From: an uncultured Nitrososphaeraceae archaeon
Lineage (GTDB): Archaea; Thermoproteota; Nitrososphaeria; Nitrososphaerales; Nitrososphaeraceae
Length of the DNA stretch: 64,000 nucleotides
Assembly: GCA_963765895.1 (NCBI GenBank)
Contig: CAVXZB010000024.1
Span: 64,001 to 128,000, forward strand
Direction of reading: 5' to 3'
In this document: positions 862 to 8,789 of the stretch, piece by piece
Numbering within the stretch: the stretch's first letter is position 1
Layout: every line of letters starts with the position of its first letter
Program-made: the position numbers and the translations under genes
Notes under the pieces: generated by a model
What the model was told of the DNA's origin: nothing
Database searches by the model: none
Seen by the model: only the letters and a program-made list of their open reading frames with translations

Positions 862-2329
862 ATGAACGATACTGATATACTACATCCAATAGAAAAAGTT
901 ATTTTGGGGGAACTTAGATCCGGGCGGCCCTTGAGTCTCGATGTTTTGGCTTCTACAACTGGCTTGAATATTGATCAGCTCAGAAGAGGTATAGAGCGAC
1001 TTAAATTCAAAGGCTGCATTCATGTTAGAGAATTCTCTAAAACAATAATCTCGCTGGGCTCCAATGGACTCGAGGCTATAGTCAAAGGAATGCCTGAACG
1101 CAGATTGATTAATGCTCTAAAAGCTGGATACAAAGATCTAAAATCCATCAAAAAAAGCGGTCTATTAGACGGAAGAGATCTTGAAGCAGCGGTGAACAAA
1201 GCAAAAATACAAAATAGATGGATTGAACAAAGCACTGCAGAAGCTGGCGATAGGATATTCATTCTAAATGAATCAGCAGATCAAACTTCACAAGAGGAAA
1301 AGCTGATCGAGCGTATAAGCAAACAAAGTATTCAAATTTCTGATCTCTCACAAGAGGAGCTTAATGCTCTAAACCTGCTCAGGAAACGTCCCAATTTTGT
1401 TAATGAGATAAACCACAAAGATATACAGTTAGAGGTGACTCCTTTAGGGTTGCAAGTTTACGATAGAACGGATCTGTTACCTAAATTGTCGAGTAAATTG
1501 AACGAAATTCCGATTGACGTTATTTCTCCTGTTAGTTCTGTATATCCTGGACGCACCCATCCTTTAACTGACTTAATTGAAGAAATAAAGGAGATATTTG
1601 TTAGCCTTGGCTTTACAGAAATTGAAGGGGAGACAATTCAACCAGCATTCTGGAATTTCGATGCCTTATTTATCCCACAAGATCATCCCGCAAGAGAGAT
1701 GCAGGACACTTTTTACTTGAAAGACATGAAGAGGATTGACACGGCTAGAAGCCAGCAGATCCAAGGGGTGTCTCAAACACACAACAAGTGGTGGAACTAT
1801 ACTTGGGATTTAGCCAAGTCCGAGAGATTGGTTCTACGCACTCACACGACTCCAGTTACATTAAGATACCTCGCAGATAACGGGACTGAAAATGCTCGAA
1901 TTTTTTCAATTGGTAAAGTATTTAGAAATGAAAAAATGTCTTACAAACACCTTGTCGAGTTTAGCCAGGTAGAAGGGGTTGTAACGGGCAGTAACGTGAG
2001 CCTAACTGATCTAATGGGCTTGCAAACAGAATTTTACAAAAAATTAGGCATTAAGAGAGTAAAATTTTGGCCGACGTACTTTTCCTTACACCGAACCTTC
2101 TTTACAATCTATGATATTTAATGATAATTTGGATAGATGGGTAGAGCTTTTTGGAATGGGAATATTCCGGCCACAGGTGACAGAACCACTTGGTATTATA
2201 AACCCAGTACTTGCTTGGGGAGGAGGAATCGAAAGAATTGCTATGCTTCGATTTGGCCTAAGCGACGTAAGAGAAATCTATAACAACAAATTGGATTGGC
2301 TTAGGAAAATTGCTAAATGCCGGTTGTAA
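862..2329 (+). CDS. pheS: Phenylalanine--tRNA ligase alpha subunit, split by one apparent +1 indel at about 2080-2083
   Basis: FWNFDALFIPQDHPAREMQDTFY, LRTHTT and FSQVEG motifs. Removing one T from TAC-TTTT-CCT restores YFPYTEPSLQSMIF, joining the ORF at 2111..2329 (ELFGMGIFRP, AWGGGIERIAM). Confidence 0.95.
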
Positions 2330-3975
2330 GCCTAGACCTTAAGAGGTTAGAGAAATGGTTCCCTGGAATATCGGTAAACCAACTAATTGATGCACTACCA
2401 TTTATTGCCCTAGATATCGAAAGCGTTACAGATAGTGAGATTAGAATAGAATATAATCCAAATAGACCAGATTTTAGTTCTGATCATGGGATAGCCAGAG
2501 CACTAAGGGGTTATCTAGGTATCGAAATTGGAGTTCCCAAATTCAATCTGACTCGAACCAATAAATATAAAATATTGTCCGATAGCTCTAAAAATCTTTC
2601 TCGACCTTTTATAACTGGACTGGTGGCTAAAAATAGAAGGCTAGGTGATCCAGATATCAGACAGTTATCTGGCCTCCAAGAGGATCTCCATGATGGTATC
2701 GGAAGGAAGAAGATAAAGGCTTCAATAGGTATTTATTCATTAAGTGATATAAAATTTCCACTAAGATATACTTCAGTTTCAAATGATTTTTCCTTTACTT
2801 TTATGAACGGATCATCGGCAACCACGGTCGCCGAATTACTAAATAACCGCGCTTCGGGGACTAAATACCAAAAATTGCAAAAAAAGTCAGGTGGAAACTA
2901 CTCGGCGTTACTAGACAAGAGTAATCAACTAATCTCCATACCACCGCTAGCAAACGGTGTTTCTAGAACTACAGAACCAGGCGTAAGCAATTTATTCATA
3001 GAAGCAACTTCAGTAGATCGCAAGCTTGCCGAAGACATCATCGCTATACTGGCAGCAACGGTATATGATATAGGATTTACACTCCATAGCGTAGTCGTGG
3101 AAACACCTGAAGCCATCAACTACTCACCTAATTTGAAATCCTCACAGATGGTAATAACAACCGACCAAGTTAACGCGACGCTTGGAACAAAGTTATCTAC
3201 CGAAGAAATTATGATGTCTTTAAGGAGGTGTCGTTTAGATGCTAGAGCGGTTAAGAAGGATAACCGAAATATTATTTGCACCATTCCCAGATATAGAGTA
3301 GATATTATCGATAAAATCGATATTGTGGATGAGGTCGCTATAGGCTATGGAATAAACAATCTCATTCCATCTATACCATTTTCCAACATATCTGGAAATC
3401 TGAACTTACTTTCACGCTATCTCGGCATCATAAGAGTAACTATGGTTGGTCTAGGATTTTTGGAAGTAAATAACTTTAGTCTTATCGATAAGAATATACA
3501 ATTTGATTATATGGGCATTGAATGGCAACCTGACAAAGTACTAACTGTCGAAGGTGCTCAAAATGTCGGACTCGATAATCTACGCGACTCATTACTGCCC
3601 TCTTTGATGCAGAATCTCTCTCGCAATATCCATGAAACCTACCCGCAGAAGATATTTGAAATAGCAAAAGTCTTTAGTAACGAGACGAATCTAGAGCAGT
3701 GGCATCTAGCAGTGTTGCTAGCAGCTACCAAATCTAACTTTACCGAAGCGAAATCAGTGTTGCAAGGACTCCTTGAATCCTCATTTGCCAAGGAAATAAA
3801 AACCGAACCCGAGAAACGCTCATACTTCACTGATGGAAGATGTGCGAAGGTTATCATAGACTCTGAGTGGATTGGAGAACTAGGCGAAATCTCAGCCTCA
3901 ACTAGAGATAGTTTCAAATTGAGAGTCCCGGTAGCCGGTTTCGAGATTAATCTTTCTAGAGTACTGCACATATAG
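2317..3975 (+). CDS. pheT: Phenylalanine--tRNA ligase beta subunit
   Basis: NPNRPDFSSDHGIAR, PRYRVDI, DEVAIGYG and LRDSLLPSL motifs; overlaps the pheS stop. Confidence 0.95.
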   Translation: MPVVSLDLKRLEKWFPGISVNQLIDALPFIALDIESVTDSEIRIEYNPNRPDFSSDHGIARALRGYLGIEIGVPKFNLTRTNKYKILSDSSKNLSRPFITGLVAKNRRLGDPDIRQLSGLQEDLHDGIGRKKIKASIGIYSLSDIKFPLRYTSVSNDFSFTFMNGSSATTVAELLNNRASGTKYQKLQKKSGGNYSALLDKSNQLISIPPLANGVSRTTEPGVSNLFIEATSVDRKLAEDIIAILAATVYDIGFTLHSVVVETPEAINYSPNLKSSQMVITTDQVNATLGTKLSTEEIMMSLRRCRLDARAVKKDNRNIICTIPRYRVDIIDKIDIVDEVAIGYGINNLIPSIPFSNISGNLNLLSRYLGIIRVTMVGLGFLEVNNFSLIDKNIQFDYMGIEWQPDKVLTVEGAQNVGLDNLRDSLLPSLMQNLSRNIHETYPQKIFEIAKVFSNETNLEQWHLAVLLAATKSNFTEAKSVLQGLLESSFAKEIKTEPEKRSYFTDGRCAKVIIDSEWIGELGEISASTRDSFKLRVPVAGFEINLSRVLHI

Positions 3976-4302: not shown

Positions 4303-4479
4303 TCATTGAGTAAGATCAGTGATGCTATTCTTGATGACAGTTTTGGCCTCAGCTGATATGTTATATTGATTTAAAATCTCTGCTGGTGCTCGTATGAGCT
4401 GATTTCTAAAGTCAGGTTCACTCGCAGCCTTAAGTAGAATATCGCTAATAATCTCAGCTTCCTTCTGTCTAGAGTCCAA
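4303..4479 (-). CDS. 58-aa NHLP-leader-like (nitrile hydratase leader peptide clan) small protein; putative RiPP precursor or leader, not in the ORF track
   Basis: Manual translation from TTG: MDSRQKEAEIISDILLKAASEPDFRNQLIRAPAEILNQYNISAEAKTVIKNSITDLTQ*. It has the I-x2-A-x2-[DE]-P-x-F-R-x2-L-x3-P-x3-L pattern. TATA box TTATATA (4512-4506) lies about 27 nt upstream; divergent from ycaO. Confidence 0.75.
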   Translation of the reverse strand: MDSRQKEAEIISDILLKAASEPDFRNQLIRAPAEILNQYNISAEAKTVIKNSITDLTQ

Positions 4480-4505
4480 TCAGCAAATCGGTTGCATGAT
4501 TCCAG

Positions 4506-4512
4506 TATATAA
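4506..4512 (-). promoter_or_regulatory. Archaeal TATA box for the 58-aa NHLP-like gene
   Basis: TTATATA on the minus strand about 27 nt upstream of the TTG start, typical spacing for a leaderless transcript. Confidence 0.5.
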
Positions 4513-4812
4513 TCTTAATGAATAGTATATAAGCCAATCTAACCATTAAATAATTTTTCTGTATTTAGCTCCTTTATACGTTCGACTGCTTTATCCTTTT
4601 AAAACTAATTTCTTGTAACCATTTTTGAGTGCTCATTCTTCCTCGCATTTTCTAAAATATTAAATATTTTGTCTTTTTATCGCATTAGAATAAAACCACC
4701 ATCCAACGCAGGATTACCATTCATAAGATCTCATTCCACTAGGCTGAATGTTCAAGGCTTAGCTTTGATAAGAATTAAATGCTGGCCTTTAATGGGAATA
4801 GTCAACTAAATA

Positions 4813-6120
4813 TTGCAATTACAAAGCCGAAGGAAATGGACTGCTGAAGGAACATCGAGAGTTCAGCCTCCTAACTTGACTCTCATAAACATCAGGCCAT
4901 TATCAAAAATTATTGGGCTTACAAGGTTGGCAGACATTACTGGGTTGGATGTACTCGCTATCCCCAATTACTCGGCAGTTGTCCCTGGAACTCTCGATTA
5001 CATATGGGTCTATAGTGGGAAAGGTCCAACAAGGAGACATGCGATGGCTAGTGCAATTATGGAATCGATCGAAAGATACTCTTCATTACCAAACACCGAC
5101 AATAGGAACCTGATTCGATCGAGCTATGAAGAGCTTTCGAAGAGATATACTGTTGTGCATCCTGATCAAATCTGCGAACCTACCCGATTTCAATTTAGAG
5201 ACGATATGCAGATGGACTATCTGTCGGGCTTTGACTTGCTAAACGATAGAGAAGTAATGGTACCTGCCTCCCTTGCATTGTTCAGATACGAGCCTATACC
5301 CCCTTCTGTTAATCCCTTTTCATTCTATCACACAAACGGATTGGCTTCTGGAAATGTTATGGAAGAGGCCATATGCCACTCTTTATGTGAATTGATTGAA
5401 CGCGATGCCCTTAGTCTTGCCGAACTGCGCGCCAGTGCAATTCCATTTCATTACGTGAGACATATCGCAGAGGCATTGAGAGCCCATGGGTTTTCCAGTC
5501 CTACAATTACTATTGATAAATTTAAGGATGAGTTTGGAATATTTTCTGATGTCGATTTTTCAGATATGGAATTTGAACCGGTACAGAACCTTATCAAAAT
5601 CTTTGAAAGAAATCACATATCTCTAATCGTTAAGGATATAACGACTGAAATCGGTATCCCAACATTCAATGCGGCAAGCGTTGAATGGGTTACGCATGAT
5701 TATGGCTACTTAGCTGAAGGGCATGGGACCCATCCAGATCCCAGAGTTGCATTGTTGCGCGCAATAACAGAAGTCTCACAAACAAGGGCGGCCAATATCC
5801 AAGGGGCCAGGGACGACCTTAGAAAAGTAAAATACAGCCAAGAGAATACAGATGAAAAGCGTTCATGGCGATTTGTTCCGTCCGAGAAGAGTATTAAGTA
5901 TTCCGAGATAGCTGGTTACTACAATCCCGATATACTTGACGATATAAAATTAATACTAGATCGACTGAGGAAGGCAGGTCTAACCCAGGTGATAATCGTC
6001 AATTTGACAAATAGTAAACTGCAGATTCCTGTAGTTAGGGCAGTAGTACCAGGTCTTGAGACATTTAAGATAACTAAGTCAGTCGTAGGTTGGAGAGCGA
6101 GGAAATTTTTTAAGAAATGA
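4813..6120 (+). CDS. ycaO: YcaO-family protein, TfuA-associated (thioamide-forming type)
   Basis: GLTRLADITGLD, SGKG...ASAIMESIERYS, TNGLASG...ELIERDA, RAITEVSQTR and IPVVRAVVPGLE. No Pro-rich PxP C-terminus; ATGA overlap with tfuA. Confidence 0.95.
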   Translation: MQLQSRRKWTAEGTSRVQPPNLTLINIRPLSKIIGLTRLADITGLDVLAIPNYSAVVPGTLDYIWVYSGKGPTRRHAMASAIMESIERYSSLPNTDNRNLIRSSYEELSKRYTVVHPDQICEPTRFQFRDDMQMDYLSGFDLLNDREVMVPASLALFRYEPIPPSVNPFSFYHTNGLASGNVMEEAICHSLCELIERDALSLAELRASAIPFHYVRHIAEALRAHGFSSPTITIDKFKDEFGIFSDVDFSDMEFEPVQNLIKIFERNHISLIVKDITTEIGIPTFNAASVEWVTHDYGYLAEGHGTHPDPRVALLRAITEVSQTRAANIQGARDDLRKVKYSQENTDEKRSWRFVPSEKSIKYSEIAGYYNPDILDDIKLILDRLRKAGLTQVIIVNLTNSKLQIPVVRAVVPGLETFKITKSVVGWRARKFFKK

Positions 6121-6800
6121 AAAGACCTATTGTTTTTCTTGGTCCAAGCATGAATAGTGAAAAGGCAAAGGAGGTATTCGATGCTGAGTACAGACCCCCA
6201 GCGAAAAAGGGAGATCTATTGCGACTTGGATTATCCTCAGACGGTTCTATAGTCGGTTTGGTGGATGGAATGTTTCTCCAGGATTATCCGCCGACTCCTA
6301 TAGAGGTATATCAGCTCGTAACTAAGAAAAACGTTATCGTCGTAGGTGCAGCAAGTCTCGGCGCTTTGAGAGCTGTAGAACTCGAGCGTTTTGGGATGAT
6401 AGGGATTGGTACGATTTTTAATTTATACAGAAAGGGCATAGTCTCAGCCGATGACGAGGTTGCTGTCACATTTGAGGAAAACAGTTATAGGTTACAATCT
6501 GAAGCAATGATTGATATAAGATTTAATCTGTTTCTAGCAGAAAAGCGAGGCATTATTAACAATCAGACAAGAAAAATACTTATCAAAATAGCAAAGAAGT
6601 TTTACTTTCCATTACGTAGCTACAACGATATACTTGATTATTCAGTCAGAGAGATCCCTGAATACGCAGATCAATTTGAACTATTTAGATCATATATTGC
6701 TTCTAATAGAATCAGCCTGAAAGAATTGGACACAATCAAGTTAATCAAGTATATAAAGGCCAAGTATGAACAACTCAACAAAAATGGACAAATAAACTAA
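6117..6800 (+). CDS. tfuA: TfuA-like protein
   Basis: VFLGPS, PPAKKGDL, GLVDG, GAASLGALRAVEL, GMIGIGTIF, DDEVAV and SEAMIDIR are the TfuA core motifs; translationally coupled to ycaO. Confidence 0.95.
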   Translation: MKRPIVFLGPSMNSEKAKEVFDAEYRPPAKKGDLLRLGLSSDGSIVGLVDGMFLQDYPPTPIEVYQLVTKKNVIVVGAASLGALRAVELERFGMIGIGTIFNLYRKGIVSADDEVAVTFEENSYRLQSEAMIDIRFNLFLAEKRGIINNQTRKILIKIAKKFYFPLRSYNDILDYSVREIPEYADQFELFRSYIASNRISLKELDTIKLIKYIKAKYEQLNKNGQIN

Positions 6801-7727: not shown

Positions 7728-8789
7728 TTGTGGGCACACGTAAAATTCAGAAATAACACAATGACGAACATCCTTTTTCACTGCGATAATATCGAGGCAA
7801 TGGAATATCTAATAAAAAACGGCTTTGAGAATAAAATTGACCTTATATATATAGACCCGCCATTTTTAACGAGAGATAAGTATTTTTTGAGAATCCAGGG
7901 CAGTCAAAGGCTCGCTTTCGATGATACGTTTAGAGGTGGAAATCCATTAAAAATTTATTTGGATAGCATGTATCCCCGGCTGAAAAATATAAGACGTTTA
8001 CTGTCACCTTCGGGATCTCTTTTCATTCACATGGATTGGCATATGGTGCACTACATAAAAGTAGTTATGGATGAATTGTTCGGTTATCGCAACTTTCGAA
8101 ACGAGATAGTGATTAAAAGGGGTAGGAGAAAGAATTTGCTTTATCAGTTCAAATCCATGGGCAGAATGCATATTGCAAACGATTCGATTTTATGGTATTC
8201 GAAGGATACCTCAGCAAAGTTCCCATTACCAATGAAAGTGAATACAGTAGACTCAAAATGGATGGGATTTTGGAGTAATGTAAATAGACCTACTATGCGT
8301 TACAATCTTCTAGGTTATATACCGGAAAGGGGTCAATGGAAATGGACCAGATCCAGGGCCATGAAGGCCGTACACAACTATAAGCGCTATCAGTGTTATT
8401 TTTCACAAGTTCCGCTTGAAAAATATTGGCTCCAAACGGGCAGAAGGTTAGAGTTTGTCCGGAAAAGAGAAGAAGTTAAGTATGCTGAATATTGGATACC
8501 ACCAAAGAGTAGGACAGTCTTGGATAACATCTGGCTAGATGTAGAAAGCTATGGATATTCAACTGGATATGAGACAGAAAAGCATGAACAATTATTAGAA
8601 AGAATTATTGGCCAGTTTTCCTATCCTAAGGCATTAGTTGCCGATTTCTTTTGCGGATCTGGGACATCTTTAGTCGCTGCCGCAAGATTGGCAAGAAATT
8701 GGATTGGATGCGACTCCTCCACTCAGGCTATTAACGTAGCACGAAAGAGACTGTTTAATACTAGCTATAAGCTAATAAGGCTGGCTTGA
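7728..8789 (+). CDS. Site-specific DNA methyltransferase (N6-A/N4-C, beta class, Mod-like), no adjacent restriction gene; true start may be the ATG at 7761
   Basis: DLIYIDPPF (motif IV) N-terminal, DFFCGSGT (motif I) C-terminal, plus SGSLFIHMDW and FRNEIV. Confidence 0.9.
   Translation: MWAHVKFRNNTMTNILFHCDNIEAMEYLIKNGFENKIDLIYIDPPFLTRDKYFLRIQGSQRLAFDDTFRGGNPLKIYLDSMYPRLKNIRRLLSPSGSLFIHMDWHMVHYIKVVMDELFGYRNFRNEIVIKRGRRKNLLYQFKSMGRMHIANDSILWYSKDTSAKFPLPMKVNTVDSKWMGFWSNVNRPTMRYNLLGYIPERGQWKWTRSRAMKAVHNYKRYQCYFSQVPLEKYWLQTGRRLEFVRKREEVKYAEYWIPPKSRTVLDNIWLDVESYGYSTGYETEKHEQLLERIIGQFSYPKALVADFFCGSGTSLVAAARLARNWIGCDSSTQAINVARKRLFNTSYKLIRLA

Follow-up and report, generated by a model that had tools for sequence, protein, structure and literature searches.

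A conserved 58-residue NHLP-clan-like protein as a candidate partner of an insertion-bearing YcaO-TfuA pair in soil ammonia-oxidizing archaea

The ycaO-tfuA locus and its host

The window analyzed here, a stretch of 64,000 nucleotides from an uncultured Nitrososphaeraceae archaeon, encodes a ycaO-tfuA pair and, divergently oriented from it, a small gene. The features of the locus are the following:

2317..3975, pheT, neighbor of the small-protein/ycaO locus
4303..4479, minus strand, gene of the small protein (58 aa, NHLP-clan-like), with TTG start at 4479-4477 and TGA stop at 4305-4303
4480..4812, divergent intergenic region of 333 bp between the small-protein gene and ycaO
4506..4512, minus strand, TATA box TTATATA, ending 26 nt before the TTG of the small-protein gene
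4813..6120, plus strand, ycaO (435 aa, TTG start), encoding a putative backbone-activating ATP-dependent enzyme of the clade nearest the McrA-thioamidating YcaOs
5431..5547, plus strand, YcaO insertion of 39 residues (207-245), a helix (210-224) and a loop that are absent from Methanocaldococcus jannaschii MJ1094; predicted docking surface
6117..6800, plus strand, tfuA (227 aa), overlapping ycaO as ATGA at 6117-6120 and thereby coupled to it in translation

Coordinates and Pfam matches agree with the preliminary description of this DNA, which had placed an intact, ATGA-coupled ycaO-tfuA pair after pheT and a 333-bp gap between it and the divergent small ORF. YcaO matches PF02624 over the whole profile (positions 1-325 of 325; E 5e-75, 253.3 bits against a cut-off of 25.7), and TfuA matches PF07812 (E 4.8e-36, 123.6 bits against a cut-off of 30). 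Judged from sequence, the pair would putatively carry out an O-to-S exchange on a backbone amide. The intergenic region measures about 300-330 bp in the five loci of the same genus that retain ycaO, and mostly ~90-160 bp in the other genera of the family. The locus is flanked by pheS/pheT, a 197-aa ORF without a Pfam match, and a DNA methylase gene; the 197-aa ORF, which lies 3′ of tfuA, has no family match in Pfam/NCBIfam-type profiles, and its synteny is not kept in relatives. Among the ORFs and Pfam matches adjoining the pair, none was recognized as ThiS, a protease, or an exporter, as had been stated earlier. ThiS-family genes are present elsewhere in the same genome.

The host had been taken for an ammonia oxidizer devoid of MCR, which fits both the amoA gene on the same contig and the search for the McrA domain PF02249, which was not found in the source genome (88% complete) or in a relative, G019 (99% complete). 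To our knowledge, the YcaO-TfuA pairs of ammonia-oxidizing archaea have no known substrate, because their hosts do not have MCR. Such pairs have been noted since 2017, when a tree put the YcaOs of ammonia oxidizers in the McrA-thioamidating clade (PMC5589413), and were counted in 2021 as 8 "TfuA-related" clusters (PMC8120280). Searches of the literature on YcaO, TfuA, thioamidation, or NHLP in ammonia-oxidizing archaea turned up no account of the small protein; the supplementary lists of precursors predicted for archaeal clusters in PMC8120280, which lie outside this scope, might name it.

The small-protein gene

The small gene is real and conserved. Its ORF is kept in 36 of 36 genomes of the same family, and among its codons the third position varies in 57 of 57 while the second varies in 22 of 57, so that its retention is more than chance. 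The median dN/dS is 0.105 (82 of 253 pairs, those with finite dS), with values of ~0.1 over the whole length. The product has a pI of 4.85, computed from the translation, and contains no Cys and no Gly, in keeping with the earlier remark that the peptide is free of Gly and of a Gly-Gly site. Two other early claims have to be corrected. The ORF does not start with ATG; its first codon is TTG, the sole canonical start in the frame and the start codon in 36 of 38 distinct loci. Nor was it missed by gene callers, since the standard ORF listing has it and public collections already hold 851 predicted proteins of the family, for which every given name is "hypothetical protein."

The claim that the gene has its own TATA box, on the other hand, is borne out by TTATATA at 4506-4512, and a matching heptamer is located 22-27 nt upstream of the start in 28 of 35 loci. 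Together with a conserved flanking GA, the box reads like a BRE/TATA promoter of the small-protein gene. Its position so near the TTG implies a very short or absent 5′ leader.

Contigs from RNA libraries span the small ORF and ycaO-tfuA at 95-99% identity in all four soil or rhizosphere libraries (4/4), which demonstrates presence in RNA libraries and is not proof of transcription.

As a separate observation, the RNA contigs over the small gene stop at 4465-4474 in 4/4 libraries, one of them carrying adapter as a loose end at 4474, and none from the four libraries covers 4488-4778. These ends would fit a transcript start at or near the TTG but are not counted as evidence for one, as contigs cannot show ends or strand.

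Relationship to the NHLP clan

Hidden Markov models relate the small protein to leader domains of RiPP precursors, at scores below the family cut-offs. Against TIGR03793 (NHLP leader) it scores 20.7 bits (E 2.8e-4, model positions 3-36 of 77; cut-off 50.9), and against NF038399 (Os1348 family) 17.0 bits (positions 4-44 of the 63-position domain; cut-off 40). At E ≤ 0.1, TIGR03793 is matched by 24 of 28 orthologs and NF038399 by 26 of 28, with a best E of 4.9e-6. A profile built from the family reaches bona fide NHLP/Os1348 proteins, aligns with Os1348-type proteins in hhalign with a probability of 98.8% (E 1.4e-16, 44 columns), and matches nitrile hydratase alpha (E 6e-8) and an NHLP leader entry (E 3.3e-3) in the PDB; among its weaker library matches, 62 of 64 bear NHLP-clan domains. 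The NHLP-leader-like pattern noticed at the outset is thus real but remote, and these profile comparisons place the small protein as a distant homolog within the NHLP clan.

In the NHLP leader family, a Gly-Gly type leader end is followed by a core peptide. The small protein ends within the domain and lacks a Gly-Gly end, a core, and a variable tail. Its last seven residues are near-constant in the family (S-I-x-D-L-x-Q), and conservation extends over the full length, which differs from a RiPP precursor in the usual sense, where the core is more variable than the leader. It is best explained, from these sequence features, as a truncated, "leader-only" relative of the NHLP/Os1348-type precursor domains. 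No other NHLP-like ORF or precursor was found in the source genome.

The structure model predicts a four-helix domain, helical nearly end to end, with the tail SITDLTQ within the last helix. Foldseek returned nothing from the PDB at E ≤ 0.001 for this model (the proteusin NMR entry 8tb1 ranked 29), and a wide VIA search peaked at a Z of 6.4, a value far too low to carry meaning for helical proteins; Os1348 (6lk7) ranked 16 there. Fold searches of the model neither support nor exclude an NHLP-type fold.

Linkage and co-occurrence

The small protein is linked to ycaO-tfuA and co-occurs with it. ycaO adjoins the small ORF in 23 of 29 short loci (two are cut by contig ends and four are unlinked); in loci of ten kb it adjoins the ORF or lies within ~1.6 kb of it in 11 of 14. 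The 201 genomes of the order divide into 58 with both the small protein and TfuA, 1 with the small protein only, 5 with TfuA only, and 137 with neither; the single genome with only the small protein is 67% complete. Of the 58, 17 keep both genes without linkage, among them every one of the 14 genomes of one genus. Where orthologous YcaOs share 56-67% identity, the small proteins share 60-98%. Three families of the order carry the module of small protein, insertion-bearing YcaO, and TfuA, and the other 17 sampled lack it. The proposed synteny of peptide, ycaO, and tfuA holds across three families. Outside the order, among 401 genomes of the phylum, just five match, weakly (E 5.6e-7 to 9.8e-4), partially, and inside ORFs of 101-433 aa. 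Since the co-occurrence is confined to three families, the number of independent events behind it may be very small. pheT, too, often adjoins the gene, and part of the synteny is therefore plain gene order.

The YcaO insertion and predicted docking

The YcaO aligns with TIGR03266 at 274.1 bits in two stretches split by an insertion, below the equivalog cut-off of 365, and TfuA scores 207.2 bits against NF033432 (equivalog cut-off 235.2). The insertion, evident in the alignment, sits after the second ATP-site helix, and the ATP-site glutamates are invariant in these YcaOs. It is present in the YcaOs of families f1, f4, and f9 and in a paralog, and absent from three YcaOs of the sister family f12. 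This paralog, a second insertion-bearing YcaO in the source genome, has no TfuA, and hence the insertion is not strictly tied to thioamidation.

Co-folding of the small protein with YcaO, a check proposed in the preliminary description, predicts docking, with an ipSAE of 0.74 (runs 0.72, 0.74, and 0.74) against 0.00 for the best of three controls. At least 96% of contacts are common to the runs, and the pLDDT of the partner is at least 88. Among 80 solved complexes, 58 reached the mark set for a complex, as did 2 among 110 mismatched pairs; these counts hold only roughly here because our own alignments were used. All interface residues on YcaO are predicted to lie within 211-241, inside the insertion, except for the C-terminal 433-434. 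On the small protein, the predicted interface comprises helix 1 and the last helix, with the C-terminal residues 51-57 in the interface and not free. Predicted contacts include YcaO residues 215, 218, 221, 222, and 238 and small-protein residues 15, 18, 19, 48, 49, and 52. The model therefore predicts that the small protein docks on the YcaO insertion.

The sister family f12 offers a built-in natural control within the same order: three of its genomes encode a canonical YcaO-TfuA without the insertion, together with McrA. One f12 YcaO reaches 492.1 bits against TIGR03266, above the cut-off of 365. The family HMM, run on six-frame ORFs of five f12 loci, found no small protein beside these YcaOs (best only E 0.56). 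A YcaO phylogeny, likewise suggested earlier, resolves the insertion-bearing and the McrA-associated f12 types as separate clades with support of 100/100.

Proposed function and alternative readings

The best explanation of these data is a three-gene module of small protein, insertion-bearing YcaO, and TfuA. It appears self-contained, as the small protein is the sole NHLP-like ORF found in the genome and ThiS-family genes are present elsewhere. We consider the small protein to be a dedicated YcaO partner that is most likely thioamidated in place, a reading to which we give a probability of roughly 0.4; its role as substrate, the site of modification, and the role of the product are inferred. 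The folded four-helix protein would dock through helix 1 and its last helix on the clade-specific insertion (207-245), and YcaO would use ATP to activate one of the backbone amides of its docked partner. Sulfide would come by way of TfuA from a ThiS-type thiocarboxylate whose gene lies elsewhere in the genome. The product would then stay in the cell as a modified protein, with none of the cutting and export typical of RiPPs. Since there is no disordered core and the C-terminus lies in the predicted interface, the target amide would be confined to the loop region 30-43 or a terminus. A supposed likeness of the C-terminal tail to the modification site of McrA was dropped, as the motif had no match in three f12 McrA proteins and neither local nor profile alignment with them reached significance.

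It is possible, if somewhat doubtful, that the small protein is not itself modified but acts in trans as a leader or adaptor, binding the YcaO insertion as a subunit, permanent or regulatory, and so activating the enzyme or forming the surface on which another protein substrate, encoded elsewhere, is recruited. What it retains of an NHLP/Os1348 precursor is the part used for recognition, its sequence ending ahead of the final helices and the variable tail. Both ends of the folded protein take part in the predicted interface, and the protein is as conserved as YcaO or more so. The conserved TTG start and near-leaderless mRNA suggest low translation, which is easier to reconcile with a stoichiometric subunit than with an abundant substrate, and TTG starts on both the small-protein gene and ycaO fit matched low expression. 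The separation of the two genes in 17 of 58 genomes also agrees with an adaptor, as does the precedent of YcaOs that thioamidate folded housekeeping proteins, uL16 being the example described in PMC13063428. Against it, no candidate third protein was identified, a subunit is more usually co-transcribed with its enzyme whereas the small protein has its own divergent promoter, and the McrA-type YcaO needs no such helper. In its most specific form, which we put forward tentatively, soil ammonia oxidizers would have a naturally split RiPP leader, a free-standing NHLP domain that plugs into the YcaO insertion and switches on or aims thioamidation of a leaderless cellular protein.

The initial proposal had left two options for the peptide, namely SITDLTQ as a core or a free-standing leader or adaptor; the first has lost ground, and the free-standing leader or partner fits better, because the tail is conserved, placed in the predicted last helix, and part of the predicted interface. 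A classical precursor, in which residues 1-50 are the leader and a thioamidated SITDLTQ is cleaved and released, matches bacterial thioamidated RiPP clusters in its NHLP-clan likeness and its place beside YcaO-TfuA (PMC8120280). It is nonetheless very improbable given a near-constant and predicted helical tail, a dN/dS of ~0.1 over the full length, the lack of any Gly and of cleavage motifs, Gly-Gly or other, and adjoining genes devoid of a protease and an exporter. We read the small protein as something other than a classical cleaved RiPP and the locus as a variant of the known YcaO-TfuA system. A functionally unrelated protein, e.g., a regulator or structural factor whose place by ycaO is inherited gene order and whose complex is a false positive, is improbable, though less so than a cleaved precursor. 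The frequent adjacency of pheT, the restriction of both genes to three families, the passing of the complex mark by mismatched pairs, and the retention of the unlinked gene in one genus would all be compatible with it. Yet the small protein is predicted to dock on just the YcaO segment that sets this clade apart, the known role of the clan is recognition by peptide-modifying enzymes, genomes of the order with the other YcaO type do not have the small protein, and the protein is acidic with no DNA-binding domain found.

Significance and relation to known systems

A 58-aa protein and a 39-residue insertion, both conserved, occurring together, and fitting one another by prediction, provide a candidate for the YcaO-TfuA target in hosts that lack the known one. 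As a substrate, the small protein would add a third kind of gene-encoded thioamidation target to McrA and uL16; as an adaptor, it would exemplify a RiPP leader domain working in trans. A split leader, if real, would mirror in nature the engineered leader-fused cyclodehydratases and would open a new route for a RiPP-type recognition module into protein maturation. Under either reading, the module is widespread in dominant soil nitrifiers.

The system nearest by sequence is the methanogen pair acting on the McrA glycine, which has the same coupled genes and a solved YcaO, MJ1094 (PDB 6pe3/6peu; TIGR03266 274 bits, NF033432 207 bits, MJ1094 E 3.9e-35). The pair described here differs in scores below 365 and 235.2, in the 39-residue insertion, and in an NHLP-like small protein in place of McrA. 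With the NHLP leader precursors and proteusins (TIGR03793), the small protein shares the helical recognition domain derived from nitrile hydratase alpha, with A-x2-[DE]-P-x-F-R and the helices that follow; unlike them, it lacks a Gly-Gly end and a core, and nothing nearby was identified as a gene for a radical SAM enzyme, a lanthionine synthetase, or another tailoring enzyme. Thioviridamide-type clusters encode short precursors with variable cores together with tailoring, protease, or transport genes, whereas the archaeal small protein is constant, predicted to be folded, and stands alone. These bacterial clusters likewise have YcaO-TfuA beside a small gene-encoded peptide (PMC8120280).

The best profile match is the Os1348 family (NF038399 / PF14407 Frankia_peptide), represented by Os1348 of Pseudomonas sp. 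Os17 (PDB 6lk7), and both proteins are small and all-helical, the archaeal one by prediction. The model of the small protein is collinear with Os1348 residues 2-57 (rmsd 2.5 over 54 residues, 22% identity) with a Z of 5.3, a value that is not diagnostic for helical folds. It ends ~20 domain positions earlier and has no variable tail. The cluster description in PMC7726476 gives Os1348 an acetyltransferase, a HEXXH peptidase, and a SagB-type dehydrogenase as companions, and not YcaO-TfuA.

Escherichia coli YcaO provides a parallel of another kind, as it acts on uL16, a folded conserved protein recognized by its tertiary structure and not by a linear leader (PMC13063428). In that work the enzyme was co-folded with the proteins of its organism. 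The E. coli system operates without TfuA and without an NHLP-like partner, and the substrate gene is unlinked. The E. coli enzyme is also strongly acidic, in contrast to the archaeal YcaO with its pI of 7.2.

Genomic context of the small ORF

A small ORF of 58 codons faces a ycaO-tfuA pair across a 333-bp gap, and the ORF listing and the sequence agree with the preliminary description of this arrangement, in which the two genes share an ATGA overlap and lie after pheT. The features are as follows:

preceding the small ORF: pheS and pheT (ORF listing and sequence)
4303-4479, minus strand: small ORF, 58 aa (ORF listing and sequence)
4813-6120, plus strand: ycaO (Pfam YcaO, E 5e-75)
6117-6800, plus strand: tfuA (Pfam TfuA, E 4.8e-36)

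The genome (G000; 4.9 Mb in 88 contigs, 88% complete), in which the window occupies C24:64001-128000, encodes one TfuA and two YcaO proteins. The proposal that the host is an ammonia oxidizer lacking MCR is supported, as amoA is located on the same contig as the small ORF, ycaO, and tfuA, and no McrA domain was found in this 88% complete genome.

Several neighboring features were also recorded. The pheS gene (862-2329) is broken into two frames (862-2121 and 2111-2329; break zone 2077-2121); if one T is dropped from the TTTT run at 2080-2083, the two frames join into an uninterrupted PheS-like sequence. The split has the look of an assembly indel at a homopolymer and not of a dead essential gene. 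Three successive segments in different reading frames make up the Pfam match of the amoA gene (G000:C24:168102-168652, outside the window; loci L004-L006; model positions 1-86, 84-108, and 109-183), which is a second sign of assembly indel errors, or else a broken amoA. An N6/N4 DNA methylase (PF01555, E 1e-34) is encoded at 7728-8789, about 0.9 kb downstream of tfuA.

The small ORF is a conserved gene

The small ORF is a real gene. Its start is TTG, the sole canonical start codon in frame, and not ATG; an in-frame TGA immediately precedes it. TTG is likewise the start at 36 of 38 distinct loci, with ATG at the other 2. Third codon positions vary at all 57 sites compared in 23 gap-free orthologues, against 34 sites for first positions and 22 for second positions; pN has a median of 0.19 vs a pS of 0.80, and median dN/dS is 0.105, taken from the 82 of 253 pairs with a finite dS. 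In 28 of 35 loci, a conserved GATTATATA-type box lies upstream, ending 22-27 nt short of the start; its position puts the transcription start at, or a few bases from, the start codon. Contigs from four of four soil or rhizosphere RNA libraries cover both the small ORF and ycaO-tfuA at 95-99% identity, showing presence in RNA libraries without proof of transcription.

A translated search recovers the small ORF in 41 of 61 related genomes (36/36 from the same family and 4/24 from other families of the order). When a profile built from 28 orthologues is used, the small protein is found in 59 of the 201 genomes of the order, namely in families f1 (40/40), f4 (8/9), and f9 (10/11) plus G000, and in none of the 140 genomes in the other 17 families. 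Nor was the ORF overlooked by ORF calling, as had been supposed: 851 predicted family members at E ≤ 0.001 are already present in public collections. Among the 120 listed, most have a length of 58 aa, and those given a name are called 'hypothetical protein', from Nitrososphaeraceae, Nitrososphaera, and Nitrosopolaris genomes.

A 16-nt motif, atatcaagtttacgaa or a near variant, is conserved in many family members about 45-60 nt upstream of the small-gene start, mid-way in a short divergent intergenic region (loci L018, L020, L023-L025, L027-L029, and L033-L035); candidates for its role are a shared regulator site and a piece of the ycaO promoter. None was seen in the longer 333-bp region of G000. 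There, a five-codon mini-ORF (ATG ... TGA; 4480-4497, minus strand) sits directly before the TTG and in frame. In two of the three same-genus relatives shown, GTG or TTG replaces its ATG and the stop is TAA, and in other genera the position holds an open frame without a start codon. One genus has a second, diverged copy of the small gene away from ycaO (65% identity, open frame of 98 aa; G021:C279:124-294 and G033:C277:325-495, locus L022).

A truncated member of the NHLP clan

The likeness to NHLP-clan leaders in the preliminary description is borne out as a remote one. Taken alone, the window protein scores below the cut-offs of TIGR03793 (NHLP leader; 20.7 bits, cut-off 50.9) and NF038399 (Os1348 family; 17.0 bits, cut-off 40) and matches Pfam Frankia_peptide at E 0.028. 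The likeness recurs throughout the family: of the 28 orthologues, 26 match NF038399 and 24 match TIGR03793 at E ≤ 0.1. A profile search of 1.84 billion representatives gives 165 matches at E ≤ 0.001, 28 of them at E ≤ 1e-10. The domain scan covered 64 of the 150 listed matches, the weaker ones that do not look orthologous; 62 carry NHLP-clan domains (E ≤ 0.001), and 48 reach the curated cut-off of NF038399 or TIGR03793, one exactly. The family profile also reaches PDB entries, namely nitrile hydratase alpha subunits (best E 6e-8) and the NHLP leader entry 9cjx (E 3.3e-3).

Aligned by hhalign to 14 Os1348-type proteins, residues 8-51 of the query fall on template positions 3-46 (probability 98.8%, E 1.4e-16, 44 columns). 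The bacterial proteins run about 20 domain positions further and end in a variable tail, whereas the archaeal protein stops, and its C-terminal S-I-x-D-L-x-Q is almost constant across the family. The small protein thus belongs to the clan in truncated, leader-only form and is not a leader plus core. It has no Gly or Cys and a pI of 4.85, and AlphaFold predicts four helices (3-20, 22-30, 32-36, and 43-57; mean pLDDT 86.7).

Linkage to ycaO-tfuA

The synteny that the preliminary description proposed to test is found in relatives. In 23 of 29 short loci, ycaO is divergent from and adjoins the small ORF; contig ends cut 2 of the others, and 4 have no ycaO in the fetched flank. The pair is adjacent, or at most about 1.6 kb away, in 11 of 14 ten-kb loci; the other 3 have none within 5 kb, and their genomes carry the pair elsewhere. 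In f9 genomes, ycaO and the small gene are separated by a 322-aa membrane protein belonging to the sodium/bile-acid-symporter family (L043:3818-4786; PF01758, E 4.7e-19).

TfuA occurs in 63 of the 201 genomes, such that 58 have both proteins, 1 has only the small protein (G131, 67% complete), 5 have only TfuA (2 with ycaO cut by a contig end, 3 from family f12), and 137 have neither. These counts may reflect few independent events, because relatives share genes. Of the 58, 41 encode both on one contig within about 4 kb and 17 have them apart, including 14/14 genomes of one genus.

Two types of YcaO

A profile of 25 orthologous YcaOs aligns to MJ1094, the solved thioamide-forming YcaO, in two blocks, between which residues 207-245 of the window YcaO face only MJ1094 187-191. 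AlphaFold predicts a helix (210-224) and then a loop for this insertion. Across families, the insertion is present in the YcaOs of f1, f4, and f9 and in the second YcaO of G000, and absent from the three YcaOs of the sister family f12. The McrA-thioamidation model (cut-off 365) gives 492 bits for one f12 YcaO and 266-288 for insertion-bearing YcaOs. All three f12 genomes with TfuA encode McrA, which was not found in one f12 genome without TfuA or in one complete f1 genome, and a search of the surroundings of the f12 YcaOs found no small protein. The two types fall into distinct clades on long stems (support 100/100) in a maximum-likelihood tree of 13 YcaOs (midpoint root, for drawing only). 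The order thus contains its own natural control, with canonical YcaO-TfuA accompanying McrA and the insertion-bearing pair accompanying the small NHLP-like protein.

The second YcaO of G000 (468 aa, 52% identical; G000:C38:40975-42081, L003:1432-2835, minus strand) has the same insertion and groups within the insertion-bearing clade; neither TfuA nor an NHLP-like ORF was found beside it. The McrA-bearing genomes, G080 (contig C53; L062, L071), G097 (L063, L073), and G120 (L064, L072), are small (1.0-1.4 Mb), are classified in the same order as the ammonia oxidizers, and carry the canonical insertion-less YcaO-TfuA, with a radical SAM gene and a homocitrate-synthase-like gene nearby. In G080, McrA and YcaO-TfuA share one contig.

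Predicted complex and possible roles

Co-folding of the peptide with YcaO, as envisaged in the preliminary description, yields a predicted complex that passes the controlled procedure (ipSAE 0.74; runs 0.72, 0.74, and 0.74) vs 0.00 for the best of three controls. Of 80 solved complexes, 58 reach this ipSAE mark, as do 2 of 110 mismatched pairs; the calibration holds only roughly here, with our own alignments used. The runs share at least 96% of contacts, with partner pLDDT of at least 88. We know of no comparable complex, so recall of a solved structure by the predictor is unlikely. The data establish the gene, how it is conserved and linked, its place in the clan, and the insertion; the docking is a prediction, not a measurement. 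The predicted YcaO interface (211-215, 217-222, 225, 227-230, 232, 236-241, and 433-434) lies inside the insertion except for 433-434; on the small protein it is formed by the first and last helices (residues 4-29 and 44-57), with 30-43 outside the contact list.

We file the small protein with its YcaO-TfuA as a variant of the YcaO-TfuA thioamidation system. In the reading that we rank first, with a probability of about 0.4, the small protein would itself be the substrate, thioamidated in place and retained in the cell. This reading is suggested by a self-contained module, as the small ORF is the only NHLP-like ORF found in G000 and ThiS genes present in the genome are available for TfuA, and by the small protein occupying the position that belongs to McrA in the case of the sister enzymes. 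The leading alternative, to which we give a somewhat lower probability, is a trans-acting leader or adaptor for some other protein substrate; a small protein without any free segment, the engagement of both its ends in the predicted interface, and the conserved weak start codon all speak for it. That the small protein is an unrelated neighbor of ycaO is improbable, being hard to reconcile with a predicted interface that lands on the clade-specific insertion. A classical cleaved RiPP precursor fits poorly and is very improbable.

In the article texts covered by our literature search, neither the small protein nor the insertion was found described. Ammonia-oxidizer YcaO homologues were put in the methanogen clade in 2017 (PMC5589413), and a 2021 count gave eight TfuA-related clusters for Thaumarchaeota (PMC8120280); the passages concerned name neither a substrate nor the small protein. 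Os1348, as described in PMC7726476, is an 85-aa helical dimer of obscure mechanism from a Pseudomonas cluster, whose enzymes are quite different from YcaO-TfuA. According to PMC13063428, folded uL16 is thioamidated by E. coli YcaO.
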